The notes: generated by a model not told the origin, from the letters alone. Shown: positions 15,333 to 25,870, counted from the first letter of the stretch. The stretch is 32,000 bases of DNA from Candidatus Peribacter riflensis (GCA_001430755.1 CP013062.1:120001-152000); one strand, 5' to 3'. Numbers and translations: made by a program.

Positions 15333-15956
15333 TCACTCTCGTGCCTTCGCCATCGCACGCACCGCCCACAGCATCGTCGAGAGTTCCCCGCGGGTGATGG
15401 GTCCATCCAGGTCGGCATCCGCCGAGAGCGCGCCGCCAGCAATGAGGGCATCCACGTAATGATCGGACCAGAATTCCTTTGGATCCGTGGTGTCTGTAGC
15501 CAAGTGGAAGGCCTTGGCCAGCGCTTTGGCCGCTTGGGCACGTGTCACGAGGGCGTTCGGGCGGAAGGTGCCGTCCGTCAAGCCGCGCATGACTCCCGCG
15601 CGCATGGCCGTGCAGAGGTCGATGCCGTACGAGGCATCTTTCTCCACATCACGTGCCAACAGAGAGTAATCGGATTCCGAAAGCTTGGGGAAACACCGTT
15701 CCGTGGGCCTGAAGAGCCGGCGCACGATCGCAGCCACGAAGGTGGAGCGCCTGATCGTCGCATCAGAATCCCATGTGTAGGCAACGGACCCCACGGCGGG
15801 CAGGGGAGGAGGCAGGGGCAGGAGAACCGGCTCCTCCATCATGATGATGGCGGGAGCTTTGGGCGGCAGCATCACGTCTTCGGGAAAGTACGCAGACGCC
15901 AGCTGCGGCAGGAGCAGGGAACAGGTGAGCAGAGCGGAGATGGAGCGTGTACGCAT
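15333..15956 (-). CDS. SLH (S-layer homology) domain envelope protein with signal peptide
   Basis: From ORF 15333..16022, start set at ATG 15956 (MRTRSISALLTCSLLLPQLASA, a signal peptide). SLH-type repeats are present: GVMRGLTDGTFRPNALVTRAQAAKALAKAF and HYVDALIAGGAL...GPITRGELSTMLWAV. Confidence 0.8.
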   Translation of the reverse strand: MRTRSISALLTCSLLLPQLASAYFPEDVMLPPKAPAIIMMEEPVLLPLPPPLPAVGSVAYTWDSDATIRRSTFVAAIVRRLFRPTERCFPKLSESDYSLLARDVEKDASYGIDLCTAMRAGVMRGLTDGTFRPNALVTRAQAAKALAKAFHLATDTTDPKEFWSDHYVDALIAGGALSADADLDGPITRGELSTMLWAVRAMAKARE

Positions 15957-16031
15957 GGAGATAAGGGGAAAAGGGGACGATTGTGAACCTCCCTTGTCTT
16001 CGGTGCAATTGCCTTTGAACACTCGAGGTGC

Positions 16032-17186
16032 TCAGTCCTCGCTCACCTTCAGCTTGGCCAGCATCCGCATGAATGCCGTTTCAGGATTATGGAGCGTACT
16101 GCCGCAGTGTAACGAGAAGCGCTGGAAGTGGCGGGGTGTGAGAATGAGGGCATTGCGTGTCGTACAGGCCATCTGTTCCTCAAAGAGAATGGTGCGGGTA
16201 CGCCCCACTGTCTGATCGGAGAGAATGTAGACATTGCTGGCTTCTTCCAGCTCGGCGATTGCATCGCGTGCATGAAGGCGGTCGAAGGCCGTGAGCGAGA
16301 AATCCGTCTCGACGCAGGCATTCCAGCCCCAGCACTCGCGCTGCGGGCCGATGTACAGTTTCCAGAGCGACGGCAGTTGCGGCTGTGTTTCTCTGTCAAA
16401 CACGCTGCGGCTGAGCAGACGGGGCTTGGGCCACACGTTGGGGTAGGAGAGCGAGAAGCCCAGGTCCGGCTGCTCCTCCGTTTTCCAGGTGACGGGATTC
16501 GACACTTCCACCTCATCGAGTGAGATACGCTGAACGGGAGGGAGCTCTGAAGGAAGCTTCAAGAGACGTGCGAGCATCTCGGCCACCTCTCCGCGCGTGA
16601 GGATGTGGGCGTGATCCTGTACCGAGGGCGGAATTGCCTCCGCCATGTCCATGTAGTGGAGGTAGGGCTTGTACCACTCCTTCCCCAGCAGATCCAGGTC
16701 GGGAATTTTGACGGGGGCGAGCCTGAAGGCGATCGACAGGATTTTCGCCCCTTCATCGAGAGAGATGGACCGGTCCGGACGGAAGCTGCCGTCTCCGTAG
16801 CCCGAGATGAAACCGTACGACCACGCCACGCACACCACCGGCGCAAACCATGCATCCGGCGGCACATCCGAGAATTGCATGCCCAGGCCGTACTTCTCGA
16901 GCGAGGAGGCGTCGCTCAGGCAGCCCTCGATGAGGGTCTGCGGTGCGAGGGCACTGATGATCATCTTCGTGAATTCCGCGCGGGTCACCGATGATTCCGG
17001 CCAGAAGACGCGGCGTTCCCCGGGCACGATGAACCCCTGTATGATCTCGCGCTGACGCAGGAGATCGATGGATTCGGCATACGGGTGCGTGTCGGGCACG
17101 TCCGCAAAGAACATCGCCCCCGCGATGGATGGAGTGAATCCGAGGACAACGAGTGCGAGCGGGACGATCCGGCGGAGAGGATGCAT
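16032..17186 (-). CDS. SLH-domain envelope protein with signal peptide and a C-terminal domain of unknown function
   Basis: From ORF 16032..17729. The start is set at ATG 17186 (MHPLRRIVPLALVVLGFTPSIAGA), 7 nt downstream of an extended -10, TGgTACAAT. Three SLH-like repeats are present: FADVPDTHPYAESIDLLRQREIIQGF, FSDVPPDAWFAPVVCVAWSYGFISGYGDGSFRPDRSISLDEGAKIL and WYKPYLHYMDMAEAI...ILTRGEVAEMLARLL. The upstream Arg/His-rich 180 codons are rejected because they overlap the DUF360 gene. Confidence 0.8.
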   Translation of the reverse strand: MHPLRRIVPLALVVLGFTPSIAGAMFFADVPDTHPYAESIDLLRQREIIQGFIVPGERRVFWPESSVTRAEFTKMIISALAPQTLIEGCLSDASSLEKYGLGMQFSDVPPDAWFAPVVCVAWSYGFISGYGDGSFRPDRSISLDEGAKILSIAFRLAPVKIPDLDLLGKEWYKPYLHYMDMAEAIPPSVQDHAHILTRGEVAEMLARLLKLPSELPPVQRISLDEVEVSNPVTWKTEEQPDLGFSLSYPNVWPKPRLLSRSVFDRETQPQLPSLWKLYIGPQRECWGWNACVETDFSLTAFDRLHARDAIAELEEASNVYILSDQTVGRTRTILFEEQMACTTRNALILTPRHFQRFSLHCGSTLHNPETAFMRMLAKLKVSED

Positions 17187-17193
17187 GGAGGGC

Positions 17194-17202
17194 ATTGTAC
17201 CA
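17194..17202 (-). promoter_or_regulatory. Extended -10 promoter candidate TGgTACAAT, 7 nt upstream of ATG 17186 (leaderless layout)
   Basis: The minus strand reads gaaTGgTACAATgccctccATGcatcct. Confidence 0.45.
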
Positions 17203-17255
17203 TTCGACACGGAGTCCATCGACCATCTACGCTGGGGGCACTTTTCCCCTCCACT

Positions 17256-17450
17256 ATGGATCAGCCAGAACTTCAGAAGCGCGTCGAGGCCTTTCTCAAA
17301 GATCTCGGGATCCCGAGCTTCATCGTCTTCGGATTCCAGAAGAGTGAAAAAGAGTTCGGCTTCATCTGGTCCCACCACCAGGCTCCGTCGAATGTGGTCA
17401 TCAAAGGGCTCTCCTGGGCGCTGCATGATTTCGTGCAGAAGAAGCTCTGA
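17256..17450 (+). CDS. Hypothetical small protein (64 aa)
   Basis: Internal ATG of ORF 17085..17450: MDQPELQKRVEAFLKDLGIPSFIVFGFQKSEKEFGFIWSHHQAPSNVVIKGLSWALHDFVQKKL. The composition is natural-looking. It fits exactly between the divergent SLH gene start and the convergent DUF360 stop, and is preceded by a pyrimidine-rich leader. The competing antisense frame has no credible start. Confidence 0.4.
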   Translation: MDQPELQKRVEAFLKDLGIPSFIVFGFQKSEKEFGFIWSHHQAPSNVVIKGLSWALHDFVQKKL

Positions 17451-17452
17451 AT

Positions 17453-17845
17453 TCACTTCAGGATTTCTTTCATCACCCAGTTCGCGAACCCGATGACTGC
17501 GGCGACCACGATCCAGCCCCACACGCCGCCGAAAATCTCCAGCCCCACGATGGCGGGGTCCATCCTGAGCACGAGCAGGTGCACCAGCCACACGAAGACG
17601 CCGTTCGAAATGATCACGGCGAGAATGGTGGCGAAGAGCCGCAGAGGCATCGTGATGATGGCGAGGATCGGGCGCACGAGGATATTGAGCAGTGTCAGGA
17701 GCGCACCCACGATGATGATGGCGCGCCAACCGCCGGTGAGCTCGAAGTACTGACTGAGGTACGTCGCCATTCCCCAGACGAGGGCGATATTCAAAATCGC
17801 CTTCATCGTAATCTTGAGCGGCAATGAACCCGAAGAGTCGGCCAT
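17453..17845 (-). CDS. DUF360 / phage-holin-family 4-TM membrane protein (YvlD-like)
   Basis: 130 aa with four TM helices. The sequence style, ...LLTLLNILVRPILAIITMPLRLFATILAVIISNGVFVWLVHLL...GGVWGWIVVAAVIGFANW, matches that family. The ATG at 17845 lies 10 nt after the ileS stop, so it is probably co-transcribed. ATG 17806 is an alternative start. Confidence 0.72.
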   Translation of the reverse strand: MADSSGSLPLKITMKAILNIALVWGMATYLSQYFELTGGWRAIIIVGALLTLLNILVRPILAIITMPLRLFATILAVIISNGVFVWLVHLLVLRMDPAIVGLEIFGGVWGWIVVAAVIGFANWVMKEILK

Positions 17846-17855
17846 GGCGGGCAGT

Positions 17856-20800
17856 CTACCTCTTCTGCAGCCTCACCGTCACGTCGGTTCCGTCGATGGT
17901 GACGGACTGGGCCTCGCCGTCATTCTGCTCCCAGAGGGCATTCGTTTCCTGGGCAATGGCGGCCCCGTGCTCCTTCTGCACGTCCGCCAGGCCATCCATG
18001 CTGAGTGCGATGCGATCGGTGAAGTGCAGCCCCGCCTCCTTGCGGAGCTTCTGCACCGCGCGGATCACGTCGCGGGCCAGCCCTTCGCGCTTGAGCTCTT
18101 CCGTGATGGCGGTCTCCATGCAGACGACGATGCCCTGATCGACCGCAGCATCCTGCCCCTCCTTTCCGCGGTAGACGATCGCCACTTCATCCGGCGCCAG
18201 CACTTCGTCGAGGATCAGCACAGAGCCATCCTCCTTCACGGTGAATGCGCCGCTCTTGCCGGCGCGAATGATCTCCTGCACGCGGGCGCCCAGACGTGGG
18301 CCCACTTTGCGCGCGTCCACCTGTGCGATGCGGCAGGCGAGCGTGCCCGGATCATCGGTGAATTCCAGATCTTTCACATTGAGTTCGTTCTTGAGCAGAT
18401 CGCGGTCTTCTTCGGTGAGCCTGAGAGCGGCAAGCGAGGGGGGGAGGGCAACCGTTGCGCGCGCGAGCGGCTGGCGCACTTTGATCTTCTTGCCGGAGCG
18501 GATGGCGTGTCCGAGCGAAACGATGTGGCGCATCAGGCGGTTGCGTTTCAGGAGTTCCCATTCCTCGGCGGTGAGGGCGCGCGGCTCGGGCCAATCGCTC
18601 AGGTGGATCGAGGTGTGAGCCTCCGGTACCAGGTTTAAGTAGATGGCCTCCGTGAGGAAAGGACAGAACGGAGCGAGTGTCTGGCACAGGGTCAGGAGCG
18701 CATCGTAGAGCGTACCCAGCGCGGCTGCCTGCTCCGCGTCATGTTCACTCAGCTCTGCAGACGGGCTCGTATCTTCCTCATCGGCTGCCCCCTTGCCGGC
18801 GAAGATCCTGCGCGACAGGCGCACGTACCAGTTGGTCAGGGCATCGATGGTTTCGTGGATTTCGGCACACGCCGCAGAGAGGTCATAGCCGTCGAGTTGC
18901 TTGGTCATGCGATTCACCAGGTCCTGCACCTCGGCGCGCAGGTACCGGTCGAGCGGATGGCCGGAGTGTCCGCGCGATCCTGTGGGCTCGAACCCGGCGG
19001 CATTCGCGTAGGTCACGAAGAAACTGTAGACATTCCAGAGGGGGAGCAGCACGGAGCGCACCGTCTCCTCCACCAGTTTCTCAGAGAAGCGCAGATCCTC
19101 GCCGCGCACGGCGGGCGAGCTCATGAATGTGAAGCGCACGGCATCCGCGCCGTGACGATTGACGACCTCGGTCGGTTCCGGGTAGTTCTTGAGCCGCTTG
19201 CTCATCTTCTTGCCGTCCTCCGCCAGCACGATGCCGTTGACGATGCAGTTGAAGAACGCCGGTTTCTTGAAGAGCGCGGAAGAGAGAATCATGAGCGTGT
19301 AGAACCATCCGCGTGTCTGGTCGATGCCCTCGGCGATGAAGTCCGCCGGAAAGCCCGGCGGGGATTTTTTGCCCTTGCCGGCCTGTGCGAAGTCGAACGG
19401 GAAGTGCGATTGTGCGTAGGGCATCGAGCCGCTCTCGAACCAGCAGTCGAGCACCTCGGGGATGCGGTGCATGAGAGCGGGGAGGGCGAGGTCGGTCGTC
19501 TCTGCATTCTTCGGATCGATGACGGCCGCTTCTGCGAAGGAAAGATTGTCCACGATCGCCTGCAGGCCCCTGAGCGGACCCGAATGACAGGCGACGAGCA
19601 CGCGCTTGCCGGGGAATTCCGCGCGGATCTTCTCCAGCACGGTTTCGAGCCGCTGCAGGAATGCCTGCAGGCTTTCCCCACCGGGGGGCGTGCCCGGGTG
19701 GAGAGCGGGGCTTGCCGTGATGCTGCGGGGGAGCAGCGTGATGAAGTCCTTCACGGGCTTTCCCGTCCAGTCTCCCGTATCGCGTTCGCGCAATTCTTTC
19801 CACCGGGCTGTGTGCGGCACCTTGAGTTCTGCGGAGAGAATTTCCGCAGTCTCCACGGCGCGCTTGAGATCCGATGAGATGATCACGTCGAACTTCCGCT
19901 TCTTTAATTTCTTCGCGAGTGCATGCACCTGTTCGCGTCCCGTCTCGTTGAGGAGGGTATCGATGTTGCCGCCGTTCACCAGATCCTGTTTGTTGTAATC
20001 CGTCTGCCCGTGGCGGACGACGGTGAGAAGCGTGTCGGTTTTCTTGGAACCCGCATTCCACGTGATCTCGTCCACGATGTGCTTGTGCAGGTCCAGCTCC
20101 TTTCCCGCCTCGTGATCCCAGTAGAACGTGTAGGGAGTGGCGAAGAAGGGGTAGGGCTGGTGGCTCAGCTTCACGGGATCTTCGTTGCTGAAGAAGTGGC
20201 GGATATTCTGGATGGGGTCGGCATGCGTGACGAGGACGATATGGCCGCCGCGGTGGAGCGGCAGAACATCCTCCATGAACGCACGCATGCGCTGTGCAAC
20301 ATCGCTCCATTTCTCCATGCCCGGAAAGTGATAGATGCTCTCGGGCGTTGCCGTCGAAAGCTTGTGGGCGCGCCGCGCCTTCACGAAGGTCAGGTCCGAG
20401 AAGTCGACGGTTTTTCCCTCGTAGTCCCCGAAGCACACCTCGCACAGGCGCGGATCCACGATCACGGGAGCCCCCGTCTTCTTGGCGATTGCCTCGGCAG
20501 TCTGCCGCGTGCGGGCGAGCGGGGAGCAGTAGATCGCAGTGACTTCTGCGGTGTTCAGGTAGTCGGCTGCCTTGCGTGCCTGCTCTTTTCCTTTGGCCGT
20601 CAGGTTCGTTCCGGGCTCCTTGCCCTGATAGACAGGGACCAGATTGCCTTCGCTCTCGCCGTGGCGCAGCGCCGTGACTTTGGTGAAGCGCAATTTCTTC
20701 TGCGCCGTGAGCTCCTCTCTGCTGGCGATCACGGTCATGTCCTTCGTCTCCGGGCAGCGCCAGATCGGCAAAGGCGTGCCCCAGTAGCGGTTGCGACTGA

Positions 20801-22265
20801 TCGCCCAGTCTCGTGCCCCTTCCAGCCACTTGCCGAACCGTCCGTCGCGGATGTGCGCGGGCACCCACTCCGTTTCCGCATTCGCGGCGAGTACGTCTTC
20901 TTTGATCTTCTCCACCGAAACGAACCATGAGCTCGTAGCGTAGTTCAGGAGAGGGGAGTCGCAGCGCCAGCAGTGCGGGTAGCTGTGCGTGTAGGGTTTT
21001 GCGTCGAAGAGCTTGCCGTGTTCCTTGAGCCACTTGGTCACCAGACGGTCGGTCTTGCCCGGATCGGCGATGGGCTTCACTTCCATGCCCGCAAAGTCCG
21101 TCACCTCCGAAACGAATTTCCCTTCCATGTTCACGTGCTGCAGCACGGGGAGCTTCTCCTTCTTTCCCAGGTTGTAGTCGTCCTCACCGAACCCCGGCGC
21201 AATGTGCACGATACCGGTGCCCTCGTCCGCAGTCACAAAGTCCGCCCCCACGATCCGGTAGGCGTTCGCATATTCTTTCTGGTTCTGGAAGTAGGGGAAG
21301 AGCGGAATGTACCGCTTGCCCAGAAGGGTTTTGATTGAAATATCTTCGACGCTTTCCGGATTTTCTTCAATCTCCTCACCTTCCCTTTTCGCTTTTGCAT
21401 ACAACAGAGGATGCAGCAAATTCTTCGGATCCTTTCTCTGATCAAATATTTTTTTGGCGAGAATATAGCGTTCACAACCATACTGGTATTTCACATATTT
21501 TATGTGAGGATCCACGGCGAGGAGCAAATTCCCCGGCAGTGTCCACGGGGTCGTGGTCCATGCGAGGATGAACGTGCCCGGCTCGTCGGCGAGTTCGAAC
21601 TTCACCGTCACGGACGTATCTGTGATGTCTTTGTAGCCCTGTGTCACCTCGAAGTTCGAGAGTGGTGTGACGCACCGTGGACAGATATGCATGGGCTTGT
21701 GGCCTTCATAGATCAAATCCTTCTTCGCCAGCTCGCTGAACACCCACCAGATCGATTCCATGTACTCCGGATCCATGGTGCGGTAATCCCAGTCCATGTC
21801 CACCCAGCGTCCCATGCGCTCCACCACCGTCCTCCATTCCTTGGCATAGCGCTGCACTGCCGTGCGGCAGAGCCCGTTGAACGCTGCGATTCCCATCTCT
21901 TCGATCTCCTTATGGGACTTGATGCCCTTCTCCTGTTCGATGATGTTCTCGACGGGGAGCCCGTGACAGTCCCAGCCGAAGCGCCGTTCCACATACTTGC
22001 CGCGCATCGTCTGGTAGCGTGGGATCACATCCTTGATCGTTCCCGCCAGCAGGTGGCCGTAGTGGGGGAGCCCCGTGGCGAACGGGGGTCCGTCGTAGAA
22101 ACTGTAGGTCTCCTGTTTCTGGCCCATCGGTCCATCCAGCAGGTCACCCGTGCCGGTGGAGCGTTGTTTGAGGCTGCGCTTGAAGGTGTCTTCCTCTTTC
22201 CAGTAGCGGAGGATGCCTTCCTCAAGGGCCGGCAGGGATTGTTTCGGATCAACGGGATCGAACAT
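17856..22265 (-). CDS. ileS: Isoleucyl-tRNA synthetase (type 2 / eukaryote-like) with two inserted histidine-phosphatase (PGM-type) domains
   Basis: From ORF 17856..22304. Start set at ATG 22265 (MFDPVDPKQSLPALEEGILRYWKEEDTF), 7 nt downstream of a TACACT hexamer. IleRS motifs present: PPFATGLPHYGH (HIGH), CP1 editing TTPWTLPGNL, WAISRNRYWGTPLPIW, EVLDCWFESGSMPYAQ, GIDQTRGWFYTL and KMSKR (KMSKS). About 420 extra residues between PLPIW and EVLDCWFESG carry two RHG...SPL/DLxR...E...H phosphatase signatures (see findings). Confidence 0.95.
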   Translation of the reverse strand: MFDPVDPKQSLPALEEGILRYWKEEDTFKRSLKQRSTGTGDLLDGPMGQKQETYSFYDGPPFATGLPHYGHLLAGTIKDVIPRYQTMRGKYVERRFGWDCHGLPVENIIEQEKGIKSHKEIEEMGIAAFNGLCRTAVQRYAKEWRTVVERMGRWVDMDWDYRTMDPEYMESIWWVFSELAKKDLIYEGHKPMHICPRCVTPLSNFEVTQGYKDITDTSVTVKFELADEPGTFILAWTTTPWTLPGNLLLAVDPHIKYVKYQYGCERYILAKKIFDQRKDPKNLLHPLLYAKAKREGEEIEENPESVEDISIKTLLGKRYIPLFPYFQNQKEYANAYRIVGADFVTADEGTGIVHIAPGFGEDDYNLGKKEKLPVLQHVNMEGKFVSEVTDFAGMEVKPIADPGKTDRLVTKWLKEHGKLFDAKPYTHSYPHCWRCDSPLLNYATSSWFVSVEKIKEDVLAANAETEWVPAHIRDGRFGKWLEGARDWAISRNRYWGTPLPIWRCPETKDMTVIASREELTAQKKLRFTKVTALRHGESEGNLVPVYQGKEPGTNLTAKGKEQARKAADYLNTAEVTAIYCSPLARTRQTAEAIAKKTGAPVIVDPRLCEVCFGDYEGKTVDFSDLTFVKARRAHKLSTATPESIYHFPGMEKWSDVAQRMRAFMEDVLPLHRGGHIVLVTHADPIQNIRHFFSNEDPVKLSHQPYPFFATPYTFYWDHEAGKELDLHKHIVDEITWNAGSKKTDTLLTVVRHGQTDYNKQDLVNGGNIDTLLNETGREQVHALAKKLKKRKFDVIISSDLKRAVETAEILSAELKVPHTARWKELRERDTGDWTGKPVKDFITLLPRSITASPALHPGTPPGGESLQAFLQRLETVLEKIRAEFPGKRVLVACHSGPLRGLQAIVDNLSFAEAAVIDPKNAETTDLALPALMHRIPEVLDCWFESGSMPYAQSHFPFDFAQAGKGKKSPPGFPADFIAEGIDQTRGWFYTLMILSSALFKKPAFFNCIVNGIVLAEDGKKMSKRLKNYPEPTEVVNRHGADAVRFTFMSSPAVRGEDLRFSEKLVEETVRSVLLPLWNVYSFFVTYANAAGFEPTGSRGHSGHPLDRYLRAEVQDLVNRMTKQLDGYDLSAACAEIHETIDALTNWYVRLSRRIFAGKGAADEEDTSPSAELSEHDAEQAAALGTLYDALLTLCQTLAPFCPFLTEAIYLNLVPEAHTSIHLSDWPEPRALTAEEWELLKRNRLMRHIVSLGHAIRSGKKIKVRQPLARATVALPPSLAALRLTEEDRDLLKNELNVKDLEFTDDPGTLACRIAQVDARKVGPRLGARVQEIIRAGKSGAFTVKEDGSVLILDEVLAPDEVAIVYRGKEGQDAAVDQGIVVCMETAITEELKREGLARDVIRAVQKLRKEAGLHFTDRIALSMDGLADVQKEHGAAIAQETNALWEQNDGEAQSVTIDGTDVTVRLQKR

Positions 22266-22272
22266 CACTGGC

Positions 22273-22278
22273 AGTGTA
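22273..22278 (-). promoter_or_regulatory. TACACT -10-like hexamer 7 nt upstream of the ileS ATG 22265
   Basis: The minus strand reads ctttgcTGTACACTgccagtgATGttc. There is no Shine-Dalgarno sequence and no room for a T-box leader. Confidence 0.35.
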
Positions 22279-22347
22279 CAGCAAAGGGTGTGGGGTGGCG
22301 TCATCCTGCACGCGCAGAATCGATGTCAAATATTGGTGTGAAAGTTT

Positions 22348-22376
22348 TTGACAGCACGGCGGTTCCTTGCGAAAAT
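22348..22376 (+). promoter_or_regulatory. Sigma70-like promoter TTGACA-N17-GAAAAT upstream of the small ORF starting at 22388
   Basis: TTGACA at 22348-22353, an exact 17-nt spacer, GAAAAT at 22371-22376, and ATG 11 nt further on. Confidence 0.45.
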
Positions 22377-22387
22377 TCGCGCCTATT

Positions 22388-22675
22388 ATGGATCCGCTAT
22401 ACCATCTGAAGGGCGAAGTTACAGCTGCTGTGCCGGTAAAAGGCGTCGTTGCTGTACCCTCTGCCGAAAGGGGGGCGGCTTCGGAAAGGGGGCAGGCTAT
22501 TACGGAGATGGTTGAGACCCGCTTGCGGTCGCTGGGCATAGGGGGCGTTACTGATACACAGGCAACGCAGGAGGCCCTGCATGCAGAAATGACGCGCAAT
22601 CCCCATCGTGAAGTTTCGCAAATTGCCGGTGCGATTCTCGGGGCTCTGGTGGCTATCGTGCGTTCCCGCTCGTAA
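22388..22675 (+). CDS. Hypothetical small protein (95 aa) with a hydrophobic C-terminal tail
   Basis: The ORF-track entry 22367..22675 begins at a TTG codon. The first ATG (22388, MDPLYHLKG...) sits just after the promoter above. The C-terminus, VSQIAGAILGALVAIVRSRS, could be a tail anchor. No recognisable motif. Confidence 0.45.
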   Translation: MDPLYHLKGEVTAAVPVKGVVAVPSAERGAASERGQAITEMVETRLRSLGIGGVTDTQATQEALHAEMTRNPHREVSQIAGAILGALVAIVRSRS

Positions 22676-22733: not shown

Positions 22734-24668
22734 ATGGCGGACCATGAGCGCCAGTTCCGCGAGTCACTCGCGTACCTTCGGGTGCGTGACCGCGCCGACG
22801 TGGAGCGCGCTTTAGCTCGCGCCGTCGAGTATCACGCCGGGCAGAAGCGGGTGACGGGTGACGATTATGTGACGCACCCCATCGCGACAGCGCTGTATCT
22901 GGCCCAATTGGAGGCGCAGAAAGACATGCTCATCGCAGCACTTCTGCACGATACCGTCGAAGACGGCCACGCGACATTCGACCAGATTGAGAGTGAGTTC
23001 GGACAGACGGTGGCTCGTCTGGTGGAGGGAGTGACGAAGATGAGCAAGCGTCTGTATGAGGGCAGGATCTCGGACCGGCAAGTTGCCTCGCTCCGGAAGA
23101 TGCTGCTCATGGCGAATGACGACTTGCGCGTCATTCTCATCAAGCTCGCCGACCGTCTGCACAACATCGAGACGCTCTCGGCCCTGCGGTCGCAGAAGCA
23201 GGAGCGCATCGCGCTCGAGACGCTCGATATCTACGTGCCGTTCGCCCGGCTCGTGGGATGGTGGGAGGCGAAAGAGCGGTTCGAGAACGTGTGCTTTCCC
23301 ATCGCGTACCCGCAGGAGAGTGCGGAGTGGCGGCAGGCGGTTGAGCGCGTGCGCGCCGAGGTGCGCGCCGAGCGCACACAGTTCATCCGGCAGGTGGACC
23401 AGGAGACCGGTGCCGAGGTCCGTGCCGAGATGTCGCTCATGACCGACTATGAGATTTTTGTGAAGATGCACCGCATCGTGAGTCGCCTCACGAATGCCAA
23501 TGCCATCGATTCGGGCCTGGTGGTGGTGCAGCGTCCCTCGCCCTTCGAGTGTTACTGGGTGCTGGGTGAAATACACGAGCACCATCAGGCACGTCCGGCC
23601 TCCTTTCGCGACTACATCTCGACGCCGCAGCCCAATGGGTACCGCGCCCTGCACACGACGGTATTCCTCTCGCGCAACCACGAGTTCCGCCTGCGCATTC
23701 AGACATCGTCCATGCATGAGTACTCGTTCAAGCGCAAGATTTCGTCCTGGGAACCCGAGAAGGAGGGCGACGTCTGCCACGCGCTGGGCGCACTACACGC
23801 GTTCGCATTCGATGACCGGCAGTACCTGCAGGATCTGCAGCAGACGATACTGGCCGAGCGCATCAACGTCTTCACCAGTTCGGGCGAAGTCATCACGCTC
23901 CCCGCCGGCGCGACCGGTGTGGATTTTGCCTATGAAGTTGATCCGGATTGCATCCGCGAACTCGCGGGTATCCGGGTGGATGGCAGCGAGGTATCGGAGG
24001 CCACGCGTGAGCTGAAGGAGGGGGAGACCGTGGAGCTTGTGCTCCTCAACGGCGGCAAGTCCGACCGGAGATCGGTGTGGGTGGACAAAGTGAAGTCCGT
24101 GCGCGCGCGCGAGCGGTTGCGGCAGACGTTGAAGCGGCACCCCAAATCGGAGCGCCGGCGCGAGGGGGCCAGCCTGCTCAAGGCCGAGTGCGTCAAATAC
24201 CGCCTGCCGATCTGGTGGCTGTTCCACTTCAGCCCTCTGCAGGCGCGCCTGGCGCAGAAGTGCGGATTCGATTCTTTCGATGCGCTCCTCGAATCGGTGG
24301 GCAGCGGGCTGGTGGCAGTCAGTACGGTCATTGAGGCATACCGTCTCCTGCTCATCACGCCGACCAGCTGGCCCATCCGCATTCTGAAGTGGCTGCACCT
24401 GCTCCCTCGCACCCGCGTGCTCAACAAAGAAGCTTCCCTCATTGATATCGAGATCTATTCCCAGGACCAGCCCGGCATGATCTACAGCATTTCCAAATGT
24501 TTTGCGGAGCGCAGTATCAACATCTCGAATTTCTCGGTTTATGCTATTCCGCCTCTGGATGCCCTCTACAAAATCCGCCTGGAGGTCAAAAATTTCAAGC
24601 AATTCAGCGATCTGTACGATACACTCCTCGAAGTGCCGGGGGTGAGGCGCATCTTGCGTAAACGTTGA
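22734..24668 (+). CDS. Long RelA/SpoT homolog (HD hydrolase, synthetase-like, TGS and ACT domains); the synthetase motifs look degenerate
   Basis: 644 aa. The HD domain is very well conserved (YVTHPIATALYL...ALLHDTVEDGHATFDQIESEFG...VEGVTKMSK...IKLADRLHNIETL). The synthetase-fold core DYISTPQPNGYRALHTTVF is present. The TGS domain reads VFTSSGEVITLPAGATGVDFAYEV. The C-terminal ACT-like segment reads IDIEIYSQDQPGMIYSISKCFAERSINISNFSV. Confidence 0.9.
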   Translation: MADHERQFRESLAYLRVRDRADVERALARAVEYHAGQKRVTGDDYVTHPIATALYLAQLEAQKDMLIAALLHDTVEDGHATFDQIESEFGQTVARLVEGVTKMSKRLYEGRISDRQVASLRKMLLMANDDLRVILIKLADRLHNIETLSALRSQKQERIALETLDIYVPFARLVGWWEAKERFENVCFPIAYPQESAEWRQAVERVRAEVRAERTQFIRQVDQETGAEVRAEMSLMTDYEIFVKMHRIVSRLTNANAIDSGLVVVQRPSPFECYWVLGEIHEHHQARPASFRDYISTPQPNGYRALHTTVFLSRNHEFRLRIQTSSMHEYSFKRKISSWEPEKEGDVCHALGALHAFAFDDRQYLQDLQQTILAERINVFTSSGEVITLPAGATGVDFAYEVDPDCIRELAGIRVDGSEVSEATRELKEGETVELVLLNGGKSDRRSVWVDKVKSVRARERLRQTLKRHPKSERRREGASLLKAECVKYRLPIWWLFHFSPLQARLAQKCGFDSFDALLESVGSGLVAVSTVIEAYRLLLITPTSWPIRILKWLHLLPRTRVLNKEASLIDIEIYSQDQPGMIYSISKCFAERSINISNFSVYAIPPLDALYKIRLEVKNFKQFSDLYDTLLEVPGVRRILRKR

Positions 24669-24700
24669 AATTGTGTCAGTATTTGCTCCTTCTCCCCACT

Positions 24701-25870
24701 ATGGAGGAACGTTTCGTTGACGCCCCCATCGATCCTATCGCCGTGTTCTTCCAAGATACGGCTGATGCCTATGATGACTATTTGCATGAAGGAGCGTGGG
24801 GCAAGAACATGCAGTTGTACGCCGCGCAGTGGGCCCAACACTACAAGTGGATGGACAGCATCATCGCGAACAGAATCCTTGAAGTGTCGGAGATGACGGG
24901 CCGTCCACTCGGCAAGATGAATCTGGGGCTGGCGGGACCGGGGTTCAAGCCCGTGGGGCATGACATCAGCGAGCACACGGCGACAGTGATCCTGAATCGT
25001 CTTCATCGGATCATCGTCATCGATTTCTCGCTCCAGGCTGTCCGTTCTGCCGTAAAGGATCTCATCCAGGCCGGGGTGCATCCCGACCGTGTGTTCGGCA
25101 TGCAGTTCGACCTCACGCGGGGATTGAGCACGATGTTCCGCACACACATTGATACACTTCTGCAGAACGTGGAGACAGAACAGCAGTTCTGTGATGTGGC
25201 CACGAACGAGTTCCCGAAGGTCACCGTCGATGAGCTGCAACAGCAACTGGGTTCCGCGCTCATCGAAATCGCCGACAACCCGCGTTCGATGGTGGGGGAA
25301 GTTGTGGGAGCCAAGAGTGCGGGAGACCTGCGCATCAAAGTGAATCAGGGCGAGGAGGTTCCGTTGCATCTCACGGTTCTGCCGATGGTGATCGCGGGGA
25401 CGAACGCCGCCACCGAGTCCCACCTGTACGAGCGTTGGCACGAGGCGACATCAGACGAAGCGCGCGCGGCCCGGAGCCCGAGTGCGCGCAGGGAGCATGA
25501 CCGCCACAGCGTGTACCGCCACATTCACCAGATGGTCGCCCAGAATAACTCCGAAATCGGCGCACGCATCGTTTCACGCTTCATCAAGGACAACATCACG
25601 CCCGACAATCCCCAGCCCGTTGTCTGCGCACTCACAGATATCGCGACGAGCTTCAACGATCCCCCGTACGGGCTCATGCCCCGTCTGCACCCCGATGTCT
25701 TCGAGTGGCGCGTGGGCGAGATGGGGGGCATGTCCACCATGCGGCATCCGCACACATTCAAAGAGGCTCCCGACCATGATCACATTGTGGCCGAAGTGCA
25801 GGTGACGCCCTCGCCCGAATCACTGGAGAGAGAGCAGCAATCATCTACATTGCCTCCGTCCGCCACCTGA
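24701..25870 (+). CDS. Hypothetical protein (389 aa); weak resemblance to a Rossmann/class I methyltransferase fold
   Basis: From ORF 24665..25870; the track start is a TTG overlapping the RSH stop. The first ATG, 24701, is preceded by a pyrimidine-rich leader (ctccttctccccact). NLGLAGPG...IIVIDFSLQAV...GMQFDLT is only vaguely reminiscent of SAM-MTase motifs I-III. There is no firm assignment. Confidence 0.6.
   Translation: MEERFVDAPIDPIAVFFQDTADAYDDYLHEGAWGKNMQLYAAQWAQHYKWMDSIIANRILEVSEMTGRPLGKMNLGLAGPGFKPVGHDISEHTATVILNRLHRIIVIDFSLQAVRSAVKDLIQAGVHPDRVFGMQFDLTRGLSTMFRTHIDTLLQNVETEQQFCDVATNEFPKVTVDELQQQLGSALIEIADNPRSMVGEVVGAKSAGDLRIKVNQGEEVPLHLTVLPMVIAGTNAATESHLYERWHEATSDEARAARSPSARREHDRHSVYRHIHQMVAQNNSEIGARIVSRFIKDNITPDNPQPVVCALTDIATSFNDPPYGLMPRLHPDVFEWRVGEMGGMSTMRHPHTFKEAPDHDHIVAEVQVTPSPESLEREQQSSTLPPSAT

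Follow-up and report, generated by a model that had tools for sequence, protein, structure and literature searches.

Two histidine-phosphatase domains nested in the CP3 region of the isoleucyl-tRNA synthetase of Candidatus Peribacter riflensis

The isoleucyl-tRNA synthetase (IleRS) of Candidatus Peribacter riflensis, encoded by ileS in a 32,000-nucleotide stretch of the chromosome (GCA_001430755.1, CP013062.1:120001-152000; hereafter the window, from whose first letter all positions are counted), carries two complete branch-1 histidine-phosphatase domains in two separate loops of connective polypeptide 3 (CP3). A first-pass annotation made from the sequence alone had proposed a long ileS of 1469 amino acids (aa) starting at the ATG at 22265, with two such domains embedded in it; the open reading frame (ORF) and the database protein bear out the former, and two Pfam His_Phos_1 matches, AlphaFold2 (AF2) models and Foldseek searches bear out the latter. 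The best overall explanation, to which we give about even credence, is a bifunctional IleRS whose phosphatase activity is coupled to aminoacylation and possibly removes a phosphate that blocks charging. The features of the gene, with Module 1 (M1) and Module 2 (M2) denoting the two phosphatase domains, are as follows, identities being mean pairwise values within the family.

17856-22265, minus strand: ileS, 1469 codons plus the stop codon at 17856-17858; the sole IleRS gene in the genome
21651-22118, minus strand: N-terminal half of the Rossmann fold (aa 50-205), HYGH at aa 68-71 (nt 22053-22064); identity 0.80
20976-21650, minus strand: CP core and CP1 editing domain (aa 206-430), WTTTPWTLPGN and GTGIVHIAP intact; matches the editing domain of PDB 1wk8
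20757-20975, minus strand: CP2 and CP2-3 linker (aa 431-503), including ARDWAISRNRYWGTPLPIW; identity 0.82
20688-20756, minus strand: native N-terminal part of CP3 (aa 504-526), a beta-hairpin and short helix ending in CPETKDMTVIASREELTAQKKL; aligns with insert-free relatives
20106-20687, minus strand: M1 (aa 527-720), His_Phos_1 at insertion site A; catalytic R534, H535 (nt 20661-20663), N541, R585, E609 and H681
20037-20105, minus strand: native CP3 helix between the modules (aa 721-743), with LDLHKHIVDEITW at nt 20058-20096
19482-20036, minus strand: M2 (aa 744-928), His_Phos_1 at insertion site B; catalytic R751, H752 (nt 20010-20012), N758, R802, E827 and H894
19086-19481, minus strand: CP3 return strand and second Rossmann half (aa 929-1060), with HRIPEVLDCWFESG, DQTRGWFY, and KMSKR at aa 1020-1024 (nt 19194-19208); identity 0.77
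18465-18950, minus strand: anticodon-binding domain (aa 1106-1267), Pfam Anticodon_1, E 2e-23
17862-18401, minus strand: C-terminal DUF5915 (aa 1289-1468), typical of type-2 IleRS, PF19302, E 5.5e-27

Integrity and placement of the two modules

Pfam finds tRNA-synt_1 split in two (aa 19-528 and the rest) around His_Phos_1 (PF00300), as the first-pass annotation had predicted, together with Anticodon_1 and DUF5915. His_Phos_1 is matched twice (E 6e-81), the two stretches scoring 271 bits and passing the gathering threshold, and each module taken alone matches many NCBIfam models of His_Phos_1 type (E 1e-26 to 1e-31). The catalytic RHG motif, second arginine, acidic residue and distal histidine, which had been read as retained in both modules, are indeed kept. 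In a MAFFT alignment of 120 homologues, R534, H535, N541, R585, E609 and H681 of M1 are invariant, as are R751, H752, G753, N758 and R802 of M2, with E827 and H894 present in 119 of 120. The full hexad of catalytic residues is intact in 136/136 M1 and 134/136 M2 domains, a retention equal to or above that in free-standing relatives (160/175); the corresponding figures are 75/78 for other IleRS-embedded modules and 31/35 for those embedded in valyl-tRNA synthetase (ValRS). Mean pairwise identity in the family is 0.63 for M1, 0.43 for M2, 0.54 for the CP1 editing domain and 0.67 for the anticodon-binding domain, so that by this measure M1 is conserved about as well as the last of these. The protein is most simply seen as bifunctional, with aminoacylation and one or two phosphomonoesterase sites that would be active.

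Structure prediction agrees with the family assignment. AF2 models gave a mean pLDDT of 89.7 and a pTM of 0.89 for aa 1-1100, and 94.4 and 0.91 for the insert alone, with M1 at pLDDT 95-98 and M2 at 96-99 (about 95-99 over both). Both modules are predicted to be well-folded PhoE/PspA-like domains in a fixed mutual arrangement on the synthetase. Foldseek placed each module nearest to PhoE (TMt 0.79-0.82) and PspA (0.80), with GpgP and a riboflavin-pathway histidine phosphatase also among the matches, and sequence searches of the PDB with each module agree with this placement. None of the curated NCBIfam equivalog cutoffs is reached by either module alone, the best being dPGM_arch for M1 (99.8 vs 225 bits) and CobC for M2 (109.1 vs 162.9); per-domain scores likewise lie below the cutoffs of CobC (TIGR03162), dPGM (NF038349, TIGR01258) and PspA (NF045917), and for this reason no substrate can be transferred by homology. 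The whole protein does score 190 bits against CobC, above the cutoff of 162.9, but only by summing two modules that each fail alone, and a CobC identity was therefore rejected. Such summed scores are an annotation pitfall that may mislabel the enzyme as an alpha-ribazole phosphatase or a phosphoglycerate mutase (PGM).

The cap segment of M1 (aa ~617-653, nt ~20307-20417; GKTVDFSDLxFVKARRAHKLxxxxPESIYHFPGMExW) is unusually conserved, with R632, K635, E642, S643, Y645, H646, G649, M650, E651 and W653 each conserved at 90% or more. Its basic cluster is found again in site-A modules of distant relatives, and the segment may serve as a substrate-binding or interface element.

The position of the modules follows from the order of motifs along the protein, which starts with HYGH (aa 68), TTPWTLPGN (aa 238), WAISRNRYWG (aa 487) and PIWRC (aa 500), continues through RHGES (aa 534, nt 20652-20666) and THADP (aa 680) of M1, LDLHKH (aa 724, nt 20079-20096), and RHGQT (aa 751, nt 20001-20015) and CHSGP (aa 893) of M2, and returns to the synthetase with EVLDCWFESG (aa 937), DQTRGWFY (aa 982) and KMSKR (aa 1020). 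The nucleotide positions given in the first-pass annotation were accurate, while its amino-acid numbers were off by about 4-13 residues. Alignment to solved IleRSs is interrupted at query residues 533/549 and restarts at 931, the corresponding yeast sequence being GSIKELEELTGVRNITDLHRDVIDKLTIPSKQGK..LKRIEEVFDCWFESG. The span from W.ISR to ESG is 460 aa in the P. riflensis enzyme vs 74-83 aa in insert-free relatives, which substantiates the enlargement claimed for this segment; in insert-free Peregrinibacteria it is 76 aa (WCISRNRFWGAPLPVWIAEDDENDMICIGSIKELEDFTEQKVTDLHKHFVDNIIIIKNGKKYHRIPEVLDCWFESG). In the AF2 model the N-terminal part of CP3 has strands at 501-504 and 509-512 and a helix at 516-522; M1 enters between ELTAQKKL and LDLHK, and M2 takes the place of the CP3 hairpin turn, between DEITW and HRIPEV. 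In yeast and Candida IleRS structures this stretch is CP3 (Sc 459-526, Ca 473-534), a peripheral connective-polypeptide subdomain whose topology differs among the Candida, Thermus and Staphylococcus enzymes (PMC7955072, PMC7191050), and in human IARS1 CP3 is a protein-docking surface (IARS1-LARS1). Both modules lie in two separate loops of this surface-exposed subdomain: the earlier description of them as inside the catalytic core holds for the linear sequence, whereas in the fold both belong to peripheral CP3.

Two nested insertions, with no terminal fusion, had been claimed on the strength of a native element lying between the modules. That element aligns with DLHRDVID of yeast IleRS and with DLHKHFVD of insert-free Peregrinibacteria, with D725, L726 and H727 invariant. 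The insertions are independent, because M1 and M2 are 27% identical and relatives with only a site-A or only a site-B module exist. A single insertion of a tandem two-domain phosphatase is ruled out by the same relatives and by the linker, which is the native DLHK helix; free tandem His_Phos proteins have a linker without any IleRS remnant. The 27% identity also rules out a recent duplication of M1 into M2. The only case of recent duplication is the third module of three relatives (P0002, P0005 and P0006; P and L numbers are our working identifiers), a site-B copy like M2 that is 50% identical to the M2 of another protein.

That the design is an artefact (a chimeric assembly, a frameshifted fusion, or an intein or mobile element excised from the mature product) is hardly conceivable. 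The protein is 100% identical to the Ca. P. riflensis database entry, from a genome that is closed and curated (1,248,181 bp; PMC4736985). The architecture recurs in 120/120 of the best homologues (57-78% identity). It is also shared by more than 120 protein clusters drawn from independent assemblies and by the representatives of about 30 GTDB species. GC content is uniform over the module region and the reading frame is uninterrupted across both modules. On account of this recurrence and the uniform GC, we exclude an assembly artefact, a concern raised at the outset. An intein, intron or mobile element was likewise ruled out as far as sequence data go, as no Hint/intein domain was matched by Pfam in the protein, no intron RNA by Rfam at ileS, and no meaningful flanking repeats were seen at the module borders.

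The body of the protein is that of an ordinary IleRS. The whole protein passes the IleRS equivalog TIGR00392 (808.8 bits vs a cutoff of 621.4), HYGH is found in 119/120 homologues and KMSK in 120/120, and in the CP1 editing domain T237, T238, W241, G349, T350 and V353 are invariant and H354 nearly so. The AF2 body resembles the yeast, Candida and Thermus enzymes (Foldseek, TMt up to 0.72). With catalytic, editing and tRNA-binding landmarks intact, the protein is by its sequence the sole housekeeping type-2 IleRS, and we infer that it charges tRNA(Ile) from its being the only ileS in the near-complete gene table of a closed genome. ileS appears just once in that table (PMC4736985 supplement), as a gene of 1470 codons; the rows run as far as gene 1080, at 1.18 of 1.25 Mb. 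Other synthetases in the table are ordinary or compact (ValRS 934, LeuRS 821, MetRS 506, AlaRS 617 and CysRS 494 aa), and the 1.26-kb insert has been retained despite a 1.25-Mb genome. The ileS frame itself is open over 17856-22304 on the minus strand. Long ORFs of 332-650 aa overlap it in other frames or on the other strand (18741-19877, plus; 19081-21033, minus; 19923-20930, plus; 21411-22409, plus); these are typical stop-poor artefacts of DNA of about 60% GC, not genes.

Recurrence in IleRS and ValRS across the candidate phyla radiation

Embedded histidine phosphatases recur in synthetases across the candidate phyla radiation (CPR). The census of hosts is biased toward relatives of M1- and M2-type modules, and taxon names are those assigned by the depositors of metagenome-assembled genomes. 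An insert-only search of 1.84 billion representatives returned few two-module proteins, plus long proteins matching one module. Domain and motif mapping defines four module sites in type-2 IleRS: A before DLHK, B after DLHK, C between DxWFxSG and KMSK, and D about 75 aa past KMSK, ahead of the anticodon-binding domain. The 242 IleRS sequences pooled from three protein searches have the following architectures.

A+B: 105, plus 17 whose two CP3 modules could not be assigned to A or B by the motif search
A only: 10, plus 19 partial
B only: 11
A+D: 13, plus 2 partial
A+B+B: 3
B+C: 1
C alone: 2
D alone: 1
No module: 34, plus 10 partial

The A+D forms occur in Gracilibacteria/Altimarinota and the one-module forms in Peregrinibacteria and Gracilibacteria, and insert-free forms, named isoleucine--tRNA ligase, are known from both of the latter groups. 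A scan of GTDB added complete site-A one-module IleRSs in Adlerbacteria, Saccharibacteria, Paceibacterota and Absconditabacterales, and one IleRS with B+C+D modules (L040). IleRSs with one to three predicted modules, at no fewer than four sites around the second Rossmann half, are found across CPR, and the P. riflensis ileS is one member of a large class, not a one-off.

ValRS is the second host. Two of the proteins mapped turned out to be ValRSs, and a follow-up search found a module in 31 of 119 ValRS relatives, which, where named, belong to Falkowbacteria, Kuenenbacteria, Moranbacteria, Uhrbacteria or unclassified Patescibacteria; Magasanikbacteria and Buchananbacteria have close relatives without a module. 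Module-bearing ValRSs are found among P0270-P0357 and in P0216 and P0130. The usual place of the module is within the CP3 zinc knuckle, and in P0303 and P0304 it follows DTWFSS. A ValRS fragment (P0130) has at least four modules, one of them upstream of the WCISRQ motif. Other enzymes also occur in such synthetases: a 1075-aa CPR ValRS (P0355) has alpha/beta-hydrolase domains (PF00561, PF06821) in place of the phosphatase, and one IleRS relative (P0125) has a GNAT acetyltransferase (aa 265-374) in addition to a site-A His_Phos_1.

In an all-against-all BLAST a single M1 clade emerged, formed by the Peribacter M1 and the modules of P0125 and P0126 (50-54% identity), while the remaining embedded modules are about 30-40% identical to all others, free enzymes included. 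One IleRS-ValRS pair (P0230/P0304) reaches 48%. These values point to several recruitments and some exchange between IleRS and ValRS. No free-standing orthologue of M1 or M2 above about 40% identity was found among the 1.84 billion representatives; six candidates (P0127, P0134, P0139, P0141, P0151 and P0191) were discarded as ileS gene fragments with IleRS flanks. An archaeal example of an embedded module (L080, Micrarchaeia) was also rejected, being just a free-standing phosphatase. Many of the nearest non-embedded relatives are free-standing proteins with two His_Phos_1 domains in tandem, about 405-430 aa long (P0131, P0135, P0149, P0150, P0173, P0178 and many more), which suggests paired domains working together, possibly as a pseudo-dimer. 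A 579-aa protein (P0163) joins a weak QueC-like N-terminus (queuosine precursor pathway) to a C-terminal His_Phos_1 near the embedded modules.

The components of this architecture have known counterparts. Type-2 (eukaryote/archaeal-like) IleRSs, such as those of Thermus thermophilus (1ILE), yeast (7D5C/8WND) and Priestia megaterium (IleRS2, 8C8U), are the best sequence and fold matches, with the same domain order, motifs, editing and anticodon-binding domains, and DUF5915; their CP3 has 55-80 aa, whereas that of P. riflensis has about 385 extra residues, the two phosphatase domains. The PhoE, PspA, CobC and GpgP types of branch-1 histidine phosphatase (PF00300) share fold (TMt ~0.8), size and hexad with the modules but are free-standing and usually dimeric, whereas P. 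riflensis has two divergent copies nested in another enzyme. A precedent for an IleRS with an inserted foreign enzyme is NCBIfam NF040702 (ileS_w_GNAT, isoleucine--tRNA ligase, N-acetyltransferase domain-containing), in which both the enzyme and the site are different, the GNAT of P0125 lying upstream of CP2/CP3; the P. riflensis protein scores 255 bits against its cutoff of 1999 and has no acetyltransferase match in Pfam. The bifunctional RNase H/acid phosphatase (Rv2228c/RnhC type, NF005567) likewise combines a nucleic-acid enzyme with a CobC-like His_Phos_1 of unclear purpose and is among the top NCBIfam matches of both modules, but it is a terminal fusion to a different partner, and the module scores of 95-99 bits fall below the cutoff of 326. 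Accessory domains of eukaryotic aminoacyl-tRNA synthetases (aaRSs), and CP3 in human IARS1-LARS1, are also new functions grafted onto a synthetase surface and present CP3 as evolvable; those additions are mostly non-catalytic and terminal, in contrast to the complete enzymes nested internally in bacteria here.

Possible roles of the embedded phosphatases

The recurrence pattern is the main argument for a functional connection. Every recruitment drew on the same enzyme family, IleRS and ValRS are nearly the only hosts, and the modules occupy at least four loops, all around the second Rossmann half, in up to at least four copies per synthetase. From this pattern it appears slightly favoured that the phosphatase activity is coupled to class Ia aminoacylation and is not a passenger, and the lack of free-standing orthologues in the M1 and M2 lineages counts in the same direction.

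What the phosphatases would act on is a more speculative matter, as are the roles suggested in the first-pass annotation (clearing of damaged tRNA ends, hydrolysis of a nucleotide by-product or alarmone, a regulatory function). The modules may remove a phosphate that blocks charging, whether it sits on the acceptor end of the tRNA or on a bound adenine nucleotide; this is our leading and most concrete proposal, though a somewhat unlikely one in this specific form. Candidate substrates would be A76 of the cognate tRNA bearing a 2'/3'-phosphate, A76 bearing a 3'-pyrophosphate (installed by toxSAS-type enzymes or produced by RNases) that would lose its terminal phosphate, or a phosphorylated adenine nucleotide held close by, and removal would be timed just before or during acceptor-end binding. 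The tRNA-end version is motivated by two observations: the CP2-3 linker ARDWNVSRNRYWG lines the tRNA CCA-end/reveromycin pocket in yeast IleRS (PMC7955072), and tRNA-specific 3'-end pyrophosphorylation is an established block to charging (PMC11559606; bioRxiv preprint). In the toxSAS/SAH systems (FaRel2, CapRel), phosphorylation of A76 blocks aminoacylation and dedicated hydrolases reverse it, which is the activity that this model would give to the modules. However, the toxSAS and SAH families (RSH/HD) have no sequence similarity to the modules, and neither a sign of such a toxin nor a PADLOC match was seen here. More broadly, and held more tentatively still, CPR class Ia synthetases may repeatedly have recruited active histidine phosphatases as a third activity beside synthesis and editing, de-blocking their own tRNA or clearing a phosphorylated adenine nucleotide before charging. 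If true, this would be a synthetase-embedded tRNA end-repair or counter-defence function of a kind not known in any organism.

Several points weigh against these proposals. The closest characterized relatives of both modules are small-molecule phosphatases (PhoE, PspA, CobC, TIGAR, GpgP), and to our knowledge no branch-1 histidine phosphatase acts on RNA ends. Embedded modules are no more basic than free ones (pI ~6.8-7.0, net charge about -1 to -2), so that there is no sign of adaptation to nucleic-acid binding. Peregrinibacteria and Gracilibacteria also have insert-free IleRS relatives, 57-65% identical over the aligned stretch, and the modules are therefore dispensable for aminoacylation itself. 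A general tRNA-repair activity would have no obvious reason to be limited to IleRS and ValRS, and the variable CP3 and the GNAT and alpha/beta-hydrolase inserts in CPR IleRS and ValRS are compatible with mere tolerance of insertion. A link to defence systems also found no backing, with no PADLOC match for the modules or the neighbouring genes.

Much of the same evidence supports the main rival, which we consider possible but unlikely: that each module is an ordinary phosphomonoesterase for small molecules (PhoE, PspA, CobC or ARPP-phosphatase type) which works independently of IleRS and came to be housed in a permissive surface loop of a strongly expressed and essential protein, with assured co-expression or gene economy in a reduced genome as the sole benefit. 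Nearest solved relatives that are all metabolite phosphatases, a charge the same as that of free enzymes, the variable topology of CP3 among IleRSs and its docking role in human IARS1, the insertion of other enzymes into CPR class Ia synthetases (GNAT in P0125 and NF040702, alpha/beta-hydrolase in ValRS P0355), the insert-free relatives and the common occurrence of free-standing tandem two-domain His_Phos proteins would all fit such passengers. Set against this are the narrow range of hosts found, nearly all of them IleRS or ValRS although modules were recruited independently several times and at four or more sites, and the absence of a free-standing M1 or M2 orthologue from insert-free and other genomes among the 1.84 billion representatives. 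Neither module reaches a curated equivalog cutoff, and four or more copies in one synthetase are hard to square with gene economy. Also against it, a missing glycolytic PGM is ruled out by a separate 223-aa gpmA in the gene table (K01834, E 1e-83), and a phosphoserine phosphatase for serine synthesis is unsupported, as the near-complete table has no 'phosphoserine' entry, with two serA-like genes present.

A different kind of coupling would be a protein phosphatase acting in cis, stripping the synthetase that carries it of an inhibitory phosphate, for instance one on the serine of a KMSKS loop, by analogy with the serine phosphorylation of GltX and TrpS by HipA/HipT toxin kinases. The target of HipA-type kinases is the serine of a KMSKS-type loop, and His_Phos_1 includes the protein phosphatases SixA, PGAM5 and Sts. 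HipA-family kinases inactivate class I aaRSs by phosphorylation (PMC6581861, PMC8262856), and all four insertion sites flank the second Rossmann half that bears KMSKR. We nonetheless regard this role as improbable: no hipA is listed in the near-complete gene table, IleRS and ValRS are not among the known HipA targets, the modules have the full size and the cap regions of PhoE-like domains, unlike the minimal open SixA type, and multiple copies would be needless for self-dephosphorylation.

Two further roles appear very improbable. The modules might detoxify at the target, hydrolysing a phosphorylated inhibitor or antimetabolite aimed at IleRS or ValRS, with the GNAT and hydrolase inserts as analogues. 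Three small-molecule-modifying classes (phosphatase, GNAT and alpha/beta-hydrolase) are indeed inserted in CPR IleRS and ValRS, and the known routes of resistance to aminoacyl-adenylate mimics are acetylation, hydrolysis and phosphoramidate cleavage (MccE, MccF, HinT). Yet we know of no phosphomonoester-bearing natural inhibitor of IleRS or ValRS, which weakens this proposal; histidine phosphatases act on terminal phosphoryl groups, not on the diester or phosphoramidate of adenylate mimics, and no supporting genomic context was found. Equally hard to sustain is a non-catalytic role, as structural spacers, tRNA-binding lobes or ligand sensors in which hydrolysis is irrelevant. The high pTM suggests rigid integration with the body, and the conserved M1 cap could be an interface, but the six catalytic residues are almost always kept in about 385 embedded modules, in all hosts and at all sites, which is unexpected for a pseudo-enzyme.

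Neighbouring genes, naming and wider meaning

Divergent from ileS lies a gene for a RelA/SpoT homologue (RSH; 22734-24668, plus strand) with HD_4, RelA_SpoT, TGS and ACT domains. An RSH gene adjoins ileS or lies within about 3 kb of it in relatives whose IleRS is 70% (L002 3550-5484) and 61% identical (L001 341-3076), the RSH of the latter having 911 aa and a weak EamA match. Plain synteny may account for this association, or it may reflect a functional tie of uncharged tRNA to the stringent response. Beside the RSH gene is a 401-aa ORF (24665-25870, plus strand) with no Pfam or PADLOC match, and the same position in the 70% relative is taken by a 387-aa gene with no Pfam match (L002 2353-3516). 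Directly downstream of ileS, a 130-aa membrane protein with a Phage_holin_4_2 match (17453-17845, minus strand) is conserved in the 70% relative (L002 10511-10906), and beyond it are SLH-domain proteins at 15333-17729. Elsewhere in the genome, the sole 'cca' entry of the gene table is 131 aa long (E 0.0016), so that a CCA-adding enzyme may be missing, and the table has a 133-aa LigT-like (2H phosphoesterase) gene.

Literature searches turned up no account of an aaRS with embedded histidine-phosphatase domains, in keeping with what had been suspected in the first-pass annotation, and the Peribacter genome paper has no mention of a phosphatase-bearing IleRS (PMC4736985). The architecture itself is nevertheless widespread in CPR, and in ValRS as well. 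Both component families are already known, as is an IleRS with an inserted GNAT in NCBIfam. The sequences are public under automatic labels: some are 'isoleucyl-tRNA synthetase/bisphosphoglycerate-dependent phosphoglycerate mutase' at JGI, and PGAP names insert-bearing proteins only 'class I tRNA ligase family protein', in contrast to the isoleucine--tRNA ligase of insert-free relatives. A practical consequence for annotation is that essential enzymes are named vaguely or mislabelled.

The aaRSs are among the most conserved enzymes, and there are hardly any descriptions of complete foreign enzymes nested in the catalytic domain of a bacterial one. The design reported here is lineage-wide and strongly conserved in a major uncultivated branch of bacteria, with copy number and site varying and active sites nearly always intact. 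If the modules are passengers, CP3 and neighbouring class Ia loops would be natural, highly permissive insertion sites, useful for protein engineering. If instead the phosphatases act on tRNA ends or nucleotides at the synthetase, they would represent a new kind of translation quality control or repair, and could show how episymbiotic CPR cells cope with toxins or RNases.

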